This document shows positions 9,641-9,675 of a stretch of DNA of 64,000 bases, in pieces (position 1 is the stretch's first letter; each line of letters starts with the position of its first letter). A program made the position numbers and the translations under genes. The notes beneath the pieces are model-generated. The model was not told the origin of the DNA, did no database searches, and worked only from the letters and a program-made list of their open reading frames with translations. The DNA lies in contig OY969561.1 in assembly GCA_963701085.1 (NCBI GenBank), positions 288,001 through 352,000 of the forward strand, written 5' to 3'. This stretch comes from an uncultured bacterium (GTDB taxonomy: Bacteria; Babelota; Babeliae; Babelales; Vermiphilaceae).

Positions 9641-9675
9641 CTGGCCTGCCAGCTGAAGCTTTATGCGAAAGCTGG
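9641..9675. repeat. Family B hairpin overlapping the tRNA-His CCA end
   Basis: ctggcctg-ccagct-gaagc-tttat-gcgaa-agctgg; the terminal tgg is the complement of the tRNA CCA. Confidence 0.85.

Follow-up and report, generated by a model that had tools for sequence, protein, structure and literature searches.

A CCA-end hairpin of tRNA and tmRNA genes, linked to a minimal GIY-YIG nuclease gene, as a probable module of a small selfish DNA element

The stretch of DNA analyzed here (hereafter, the window; 64,000 nucleotides (nt), positions 288,001 to 352,000 of contig OY969561.1, GenBank assembly GCA_963701085.1) comes from an uncultured bacterium of the Vermiphilaceae (Babelota) and contains four tRNA genes detected by ARAGORN, those for Pro and His on the minus strand and those for Arg(TCG) and Arg(CCT) on the plus strand. 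The His gene and both Arg genes are followed by a hairpin, denoted H1, that begins at the CCA encoded at the 3' end of the gene and that we interpret below as part of a small selfish DNA element (in a preceding sequence-only reading of the window, H1 was called family B and a second hairpin, here H3, family A; the window's genome is denoted G000). At tRNA-His(GTG) (9673..9748, minus strand; found by both ARAGORN and the Rfam tRNA model), H1 occupies positions 9641..9675 of the minus strand, and the encoded CCA (9675-9673) supplies its first three base pairs. The arms, CCAGCT (9675-9670) and AGCTGG (9654-9649), enclose ttcgcataaagcttc, that is, the interior TTC-GC-ATAAA-GC-TTC, and are followed by the tail CAGGCCAG (caggccag, 9648-9641) and a T-run. 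On the plus strand, H1 copies reading CCATAC..GTATGG-CAGGCCA, with TATGC and TTTGC on the 5' side of the interior, start at the CCA of tRNA-Arg(TCG) (gene 38288-38364, H1 38362..38430) and tRNA-Arg(CCT) (gene 45019-45095, H1 45093..45157). The arms and coordinates of all three hairpins proposed in the sequence-only reading were reproduced, as was the lack of a hairpin at tRNA-Pro(TGG) (9379..9454, minus), where no element lies 3' of the CCA and the trailer TTTTTTTTAAAGG opens directly with a T-run. The motif TGGCAGGCC occurs four times in the window, compared to 0.17 occurrences expected, and none of 100 shuffled sequences reached four.

The loops of both Arg copies contain similar 35-nt inserts (38373-38407 and 45104-45138), each comprising a CTCCTCC..GGAGGAC hairpin, a T-rich run, ATAC and an A-run; this insert is present nowhere else in the genome, suggesting transfer of one H1 from one Arg gene to the other or a joint duplication of both. 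Directly after the GCCA tail of the H1 unit at tRNA-Arg(CCT), a second, tandem unit begins (45158..45209, plus), which ends with GTATGG-CAGGCC and in which a solo end-repeat of a second GIY-YIG element, described below, takes the place of the loop.

The block at tRNA-His extends beyond H1 and spans 9537..9672 of the minus strand (about 137 nt, with a 1-nt ambiguity at the A of CCA); it consists of H1, a spacer, a distal segment complementary to H1, and H3, with no nuclease gene, and is missing from the His-Pro spacer of three congeners. The spacer is palindromic, and its inner arm, AAAAAAGCTGG (9601..9611, minus), pairs in the predicted fold with the tail and T-run CCAGTTTTTTT. Over its 10 nt, the distal segment GCGAAAGCTG (9581..9590, minus) complements without mismatch the half of H1 that adjoins the CCA (CAGCTTTCGC). 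It is followed by H3 (9555..9580, minus; TCCGCC-GAAGC-CTTG-GCGAA-GGAGGA), which is a unit of the H1 type in the reversed orientation: positions 9556-9579 of the plus strand read CCTCC-TTCGCCAAGGCTTC-GGCGG. Neither the distal complement nor H3 was found downstream of the two Arg copies of H1. In the predicted fold of tRNA-His with its trailer, the cloverleaf is kept and the long-range helix forms (z = -2.81; none of 200 shuffled sequences folds as well). An alternative small hairpin with a T-run, (AG)CTGG-CAGG-CCAG(TT) (9634..9654, minus), resembles a terminator and is mutually exclusive with H1, from which the T-run is separated by 8 nt; it is the single terminator-like site within 9300-9800, where the shuffled mean is 0.5. 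A search of Rfam over positions 9000-10000 with E-values up to 10 yielded the two tRNAs and no other curated RNA family. At 9594-9623 of the window (plus-strand numbering), and in the trailers of tRNA-Tyr, Thr-TGT, Ser-GGA and Arg-TCT elsewhere in the genome, the tail is followed by a T-run, AAAGG and a TTGAYA-like sequence, an order that looks like a terminator followed by the -35 box of the next gene; judging from these motifs, both signals may come from the element in this lineage.

Examination of the complete genome (1,198,634 bp in a single contig, 37% G+C) shows that H1 is not confined to the three tRNA genes to which the sequence-only reading had limited it. Under a strict rule (CCAxyz...z'y'x'TGG at the tRNA end, five or more of the six pairs formed, and a tail of the type C-N2-4-GCC), H1 is present behind 18 of the 35 tRNA genes and behind the tmRNA gene, with the general form CCA-xyz-T(T/A)CGC..GCTTC-z'y'x'-TGG-C-N2-4-GCCA. 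Five more tRNA genes carry variants, namely Leu-GAG, where the hairpin is displaced by 1 nt, Leu-TAG, where the arms are not complementary, Leu-TAA, Val-TAC and Asp; no hairpin follows Ile, Ala, the two Gly, Thr-GGT, Trp, the three Met, Asn, Pro and Cys tRNAs, of which Ile and Ala, judging from the gene order, sit in the rRNA operon. The supposedly fixed CAGGCCA tail is found in 9 of the 18 copies under the strict rule, the remainder fitting C-N2-4-(G/A)CC(A/T). By reading of the trailers, about half of this genome's copies have a T-run behind the tail; it is missing in GC-rich phyla. Among the 33,789 CCA trinucleotides of the genome, compact hairpins start at 12, of which 10 are tRNA CCA ends, one is the tmRNA CCA end and one lies 12 nt past tRNA-Val(TAC). 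The tmRNA-end hairpin is located at 885563 of the genome, where Rfam identifies the 3' end of a standard tmRNA (885563-885932, minus; 1064-1433 of locus L241; 145 bits) with H1 at its CCA end; the 670-nt permuted tmRNA with an odd proline-rich tag predicted by ARAGORN at the same position is wrong.

The interior T(T/A)CGC..GCT(T/A)C marks a wider family in the genome, with 87 units in which four or more of the five stem pairs form. The plus strand has 34 of them and the minus strand 53, and they mostly have CCTCC/GGAGG or CCGCC/GGCGG stems and a CA(C/G)G tail. No clear replichore bias was detected among these units (one arm has 19 plus and 32 minus units, the other 15 plus and 21 minus); relative to neighbouring crude open reading frames (ORFs), 45 are on the same and 21 on the opposite strand, a mild sense-strand bias. 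Other hairpin units, or solo end-repeats of the second element, are nested inside H1 loops, and tandem units begin directly after a GCCA tail in the window (45158-45209) and in two further loci (L105 and L126). The nested inserts and the tandem units point to spread at the DNA level.

Comparison of orthologous sites within the genus shows that H1 is an insertion rather than a native trailer, with the left junction right after the CCA. The His-Pro spacer was compared across 11 genomes of the genus: three have it empty (G001, G004 and G005), seven have an H1-type block there and one has other content. The empty spacers are 68-82 nt long and read CCA|AAAAA, and the alignment of the window's genome with one of them (G004) contains a single clean gap of 138 columns that starts at the CCA, with a 1-nt ambiguity and no visible target duplication. 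The comparison with relatives lacking the element, which the sequence-only reading had proposed, reveals empty sites with a clean junction after CCA. At the tRNA-Glu site, four of 10 genomes have H1 and six lack it, and at tRNA-Lys(TTT), H1 or its remnant is present in 8 of 10; in one congener with a 95% complete genome, neither H1 nor the nuclease gene described below was detected. The possibility that CCA...GCCA represents a target-site duplication was dropped: the C-N2-4-GCCA tail is conserved whatever the discriminator base and belongs to the element.

The triplet xyz next to CCA at tRNA-His differs between species (GCT, ACC, TAC, GAC or GCC), and both the 3' arm of H1 and the distal segment match each of these triplets, including the correspondence of TTCGC with GCGAA and of TACGC with GCGTA. 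Because the same tRNA-His carries different triplets in different species, what had been read as compensatory change is better described as the presence of different element variants: the arms do match, without position-by-position covariation in place. Similarly, of the proposal that an element targets tRNA 3' ends and templates its stem from the target, the first half is borne out by the specificity for tRNA and tmRNA ends and by the empty and filled orthologous sites; the second half fails because only the CCA belongs to the tRNA, and xyz, its complement and TGG arrive with the element, as the empty sites indicate. Across 183 distinct H1 copies, 13 triplets were found, with fully Watson-Crick pairing of xyz in 155; the TTC/TTC mismatch around the inner helix is present in 150, and the perfect distal 10-mer in 83, with one mismatch in 36 more (6 of 183 in the swapped control).

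Downstream of H1, a recurring ORF, starting with MxYVYL, encodes a protein of 80 residues that consists of a single GIY-YIG domain (Pfam PF01541, E = 1.6e-15) and has no match among NCBIfam models. The family is conserved across phyla, with a mean column identity of 57%; Y5, Y17, G19, N32 and E63 are invariant, and R27 and H31 are invariant or nearly so, all of which fit the GIY-YIG core motif. It comprises 4,294 clusters at 50% identity (E-values up to 1e-10). Many of the database proteins are 100-160 residues long, with the 80-residue match at the C-terminal end; gene-calling programs prolong the small ORF in the upstream direction, across the hairpins. Among solved structures, UPF0213 (1ZG2, E = 2.7e-9) and SLX1 (7CQ2, E = 5.6e-9) are nearest in sequence, both weak matches of about 40 bits. 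The sole copy of the 80-residue gene in the window's genome (843858-844097, minus) lies behind tRNA-Glu, H1 and H3. No co-oriented gene of this kind follows the His, Arg(TCG) and Arg(CCT) tRNAs of the window, so that the window copies are gene-less derivatives. Downstream of tRNA-Glu, on the right-hand side of the full cassette, synteny breaks in the congeners.

The link between the hairpin and the gene was examined from both sides. A same-strand family gene is located 90-623 nt downstream of 33 of 124 listed hairpin matches (102 of which have at least 600 nt of room), and at these hairpin-chosen loci, H1 lies within 420 nt upstream of 34 of 39 family hits. Because this sample was selected by the hairpin, a second one was drawn from metagenome contigs by protein alone (585 of 597 candidates confirmed, best 80 kept). 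Among the protein-chosen loci with at least 300 nt of upstream sequence, a same-strand tRNA or tmRNA ends within 600 nt of the gene in 38 of 67, and in 33 of these 38, by reading, T(T/A)CGC starts 3-6 nt after the CCA. The gene was also detected in 24 of 41 relatives, at 0-5 copies per genome, with in-frame stops in 10 of 60 listed matches; this range of copy numbers, together with the stop-bearing copies, is selfish dynamics. Of 30 gene loci fetched from the relatives, 19 directly follow one of eight kinds of tRNA or tmRNA gene (Arg-TCT, Arg-CCT, Arg-ACG, Glu, Ala, Gln, Ser and tmRNA), and the gene co-occurs with the hairpin, being present in 20 of 25 H1-positive and 4 of 16 H1-negative relatives, genomes that are kin and not independent.

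The hairpin itself is widespread. In the scan of trailers among relatives, which the sequence-only reading had also proposed, a narrow H1 pattern was found in 19 and a broader one in 25 of the 41 genomes, in addition to the 18 of 35 tRNAs and the tmRNA of the window's genome; the reversed-pattern control gave 0 matches everywhere. In a collection of species genomes, the exact pattern CCANNNTTCGCCAAGGCTTCNNNTGGC occurs in at least 120 stretches, with 124 matches among those listed, in records titled Verrucomicrobiota, Planctomycetota, Patescibacteria, Dependentiae/Babeliales/TM6, Alpha-, Gamma- and Deltaproteobacteria, Nitrospira, Acidobacteriota, Bacteroidota, Armatimonadota, Lentisphaerota and others. 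Among the 124 matches listed, 57 are at a tRNA CCA (16 isotypes), 13 at a tmRNA CCA, 6 at T-arm-like ends that were not called by ARAGORN, and 48 elsewhere; several of the latter keep 8-20 nt of a tRNA or tmRNA 3' end. The trailers closest to those of the window (T-run and AAAGG) among the matches listed come from records titled Babeliales, Dependentiae or TM6, a group in which the window's genome probably belongs. At five loci of relatives (L212, L216, L218, L225 and L229), off-tRNA copies retain on the left side of H1 a stretch of 8-12 nt from a tRNA 3' end, such as ..ggatgCCA of tRNA-Glu; it looks from these sequences as if a unit can carry along a piece of the tRNA end. In Bacteroidales, Peribacteria and Acidobacteriota records (L033, L043, L057, L088, L093 and L111), off-tRNA hairpins are located in or beside 7-8-nt tandem repeats (cctgatc, gggttac, ccctgaaa, aagcccc, ggctcag).

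Taken in full, the element has the order CCA, H1, C-N2-4-GCCA tail, spacer, distal complement, H3, 15-100 nt and the ATG of the 80-residue nuclease gene, all co-oriented with the tRNA. In the full form, H1 reads xyz-T(T/A)CGC-(inner helix of variable length)-GCTTC-z'y'x'TGG, the distal segment GCG(A/T)A-z'y'x'-TG is the perfect complement of CA-xyz-T(T/A)CGC, and the H3 consensus is (T/C)CCNCC-GAAGC-CTTG-GCGAA-GGNGG(A/G). We propose, with a probability of roughly 0.7, that H1 is the tRNA-proximal end module of a small selfish DNA element lodged directly behind the CCA that tRNA and tmRNA genes encode. Directly supported are the CCA-end address, the polymorphism of the insertion, the variation by whole units and the association with the nuclease gene. 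The window's genome keeps one full copy, at tRNA-Glu, and most of the others are gene-less, with H1 and H3 at tRNA-His and H1 alone at both Arg tRNAs.

A possible mechanism is suggested by the Ssn proteins, single-domain GIY-YIG nucleases that act at a directional hairpin repeat, NTS/SRM. According to the main text of Chenal et al. 2025 (PMC11893778), they bind this repeat exclusively in the form of single-stranded DNA (ssDNA) and cut upstream of it; the repeats lie beside their own gene and in hundreds of copies. By analogy, the 80-residue nuclease might recognize the hairpin with the T(T/A)C/TTC mismatch as ssDNA and nick beside it, and repair or copying would then spread the hairpin units. 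The TGG of the element would pair with the CCA of the target, so that the hairpin would be complete only where CCA adjoins a helix. The GCCA tail could re-create a CCA end for the next unit, which would explain the tandem units. The mini-hairpin of the tail, with the T-run, was probably co-opted as a tRNA terminator in the AT-rich lineage. Sequestration of the CCA by the trailer and an effect on 3' processing, an option raised in the sequence-only reading, may be a side effect or a co-opted role. A more speculative extension, which we consider rather unlikely, is mobility of ssDNA without HUH enzymes, based on an 80-residue GIY-YIG nuclease and a hairpin whose TGG pairs with the universal CCA end: the tRNA-like fold of the displaced DNA of a tRNA or tmRNA gene would serve as the landing pad, and the unit would be a minihelix with a GCCA tail that mimics the acceptor end and re-creates the target, perhaps taken over in reduced genomes as the standard tRNA terminator.

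Several observations weigh against the selfish-element interpretation. To our knowledge, a GIY-YIG nuclease forms no covalent intermediate and hence cannot, on its own, paste or join DNA. The proposal does not account for the exclusive use of tRNA and tmRNA CCA ends among about 34,000 CCA sites. In 5 of the 25 H1-positive relatives, no gene was detected, possibly owing to incomplete genomes. Upstream of the gene, forward hairpin units are present in 80 of 115 loci and reversed units in 59 of 115, compared to 1 and 8 of 116, respectively, within 300 nt downstream; with hairpins on one side only, the gene is not bracketed in the manner of an insertion sequence or of NTS-ssnA-NTS. The module resembles a 5' leader of the nuclease mRNA, so that selection at the RNA level may play a part, and the mild sense-strand bias of the units fits use at the RNA level as well as it fits ssDNA exposed during transcription.

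The best surviving alternative is a reading at the RNA level: H1, the distal complement and H3 would mainly be a transcribed leader or trailer, with the nuclease gene expressed by read-through from the tRNA; H1 and the alternative long-range helix would set tRNA 3' processing or termination and stabilize or gate the nuclease mRNA, and the gene-less copies would be decayed cassettes. Such a model would account for the fixed order and orientation from tRNA through hairpins to gene, the restriction of the hairpins to the upstream side, and the sense-strand bias. Alternative RNA helices typically show three-way complementarity such as that of xyz, the predicted fold retains the cloverleaf along with the long-range helix (z = -2.81; 0 of 200 shuffles), and the terminator-like mini-hairpin with its T-run competes with H1. 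Selection on RNA pairing, however, left no wobble signature: among 549 stem positions, there are 5 G-T and 7 A-C mismatches, that is, no excess of G-T, albeit at small counts. Moreover, the approximately 87 units occur on both strands (34 plus, 53 minus), mostly distant from tRNA or nuclease genes, the tandem H1 arrays and nested insertions point to spread of DNA, copies with H1 only outnumber genes by at least 19 to 1 in the window's genome, and the T-run is missing in GC-rich phyla. We give this model only a slim chance.

A host-evolved tRNA trailer or terminator, maintained for 3' maturation without any mobile element, could be suspected from the occupation of more than half of the tRNAs and from the terminator-like site with a T-run after the tail at about half of the copies; the empty orthologous sites with clean junctions, the 95%-complete relative with neither H1 nor gene, the identity of the 14-nt interior in unrelated phyla in which the tRNAs differ, and the link to a nuclease gene make this very improbable. 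Least credible of all is a REP/REPIN- or IS200/IS605-type element moved by an HUH/Y1 transposase, or the leftover of integrase-borne islands at tRNAs, which would fit the inverted pairs of hairpin units, the insertion 3' of a short fixed target with no target duplication visible at tRNA-His and the 8-12 nt of tRNA 3' end in off-tRNA copies, but conflicts with the lack of PF01797 matches in the genome, the lack of a long flanking direct repeat of the tRNA end at the His block and the fact that no integrase was noticed beside the examined loci, although no systematic integrase search was made. Specifically, PF01797 (Y1 transposase) yielded 0 matches in the window's genome and was detected by the same search in 6 of 14 control genomes, leading us to reject the REP/RAYT variant; a retro-element was rejected as well, given that PF00078 (reverse transcriptase) had no match in this genome.

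The selfish element that we favor can be compared with several known systems. SLX1 and the UPF0213 (YhbQ-type) proteins share with it the same minimal GIY-YIG core; SLX1 has an additional RING domain and a partner, SLX4, and we know of no tie of either family to tRNA genes or hairpin repeats. The Seg family of T4-like phages consists of free-standing selfish GIY-YIG genes sited between genes, including SegB in a tRNA cluster, and is similar in this respect; Seg proteins are larger, have a DNA-binding domain and spread by homing between phage genomes, in contrast to the hairpin-ended units at CCA ends described here. Integrase-borne islands likewise target tRNA and tmRNA 3' ends, and short remnants of tRNA ends beside displaced copies are reminiscent of them; the present element is 35-500 nt long rather than kilobases, has its junction after the CCA, whereas the islands join within the gene and are marked by a long direct repeat, and, as noted above for the examined loci, has no integrase beside it. 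REP/REPIN-RAYT systems and IS200/IS605 elements resemble it in that hairpin repeats are read as single strands, gene-less miniature copies proliferate, and insertion occurs beside a short specific sequence without target duplication, with IS608 reading that sequence by base pairing with the element (these systems are also discussed in PMC11893778). The differences are the lack of an HUH/Y1 transposase, the candidate enzyme being a GIY-YIG nuclease, and the target, which is the CCA end of tRNA-like genes.

The closest parallel is Ssn: in both cases, a GIY-YIG protein that has one domain and about 80-94 residues goes with a directional hairpin repeat, which occurs in many copies and also beside the gene. 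The family spans many phyla, and the resemblance to mobile elements is pointed out in the main text of PMC11893778. Ssn proteins are of CDD family cd10448; the 80-residue protein was assigned by its Pfam GIY-YIG match. The SRM motif given there, HGTCWY..RNCYNB, has 0 matches in the window's genome and five in 268 loci (1.24 Mb), none of which is H1 or H3; the expression does match an NTS instance. Ssn repeats flank the gene on both sides (NTS-ssnA-NTS), whereas hairpins of the present element lie upstream only, and the element docks at tRNA and tmRNA CCA ends, which the main text of PMC11893778 mentions 0 times. Sequences that fit the SRM motif (for example, TGTCATTCCAGCAAAGGCTGGAATCCAG) were observed in locus L107 (about 461-488, plus) and locus L113 (about 2663-2690 and 2750-2777), in Babeliales- and sphingomonad-titled records; no GIY-YIG gene was found within 2 kb of SRM-like matches in the fetched loci. 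Literature searches returned no description of a tRNA-end hairpin and nuclease element, and neither the 14-nt core nor its reverse complement appeared in any paper. By this comparison, a hairpin repeat paired with a minimal GIY-YIG nuclease would be of a known kind, and the docking at CCA ends would be the new feature.

The 3' ends of tRNA and tmRNA genes are classic landing sites of integrase-borne islands, and an element of 35-500 nt appears to reach them by another, apparently undescribed route, occupying more than half of the tRNA genes in a 1.2-Mb genome, with a core that is nearly identical across distant phyla. If the analogy holds, the principle seen in Ssn, where a very small GIY-YIG nuclease has an ssDNA hairpin of its own (PMC11893778, main text), would extend to a second type of hairpin with a defined genomic address, and the two components would be a candidate enzyme-site pair for ssDNA tools. 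Judging from the gene sequences, the pre-tRNAs of carriers would bear a CCA-sequestering trailer. For annotation, the extension of the small nuclease ORF through the hairpins by gene callers has to be taken into account.

Among the units of the wider family in the window, three are solo and on the minus strand: CCTCC-TTCGCCAAGGCTTC-GGAGG (36181..36204), which is not at a tRNA, CCGCC-TTCGCTAAAGCTAC-GGCGG (46154..46177) and CCGCC-TTCGCCGAGGCTTC-TGCGG (62306..62329). The second small GIY-YIG family (MSDFFTYILKC.. / MQNHFYxYILKC.., 96-127 amino acids) is represented by four copies in the genome, one in the window (51093-51527; ORF 51150-51440, minus) and the others at genome positions 231658, 1091369 and 1102891. 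Each of these genes is bracketed by inverted repeats of about 45 bp, located in the window at 51481-51527 and 51093-51139. Solo CCGCTCATCCTGAGCCTGTCGAAGGAC-like repeats of this element are nested in the H1 loops at Arg-ACG, Gln and Lys-TTT and also occur within the tandem units after Phe and Arg-CCT. Finally, a composite repeat of about 150 nt with the core CCGTCC-TTCGCCGAGGCTTC-GGAGGCC-AGGCGGGTGTTTAC is found at nine places in the genome (for example, 150851, 461328 and 781518), and its flanks resemble the end-repeats of the second GIY-YIG element.

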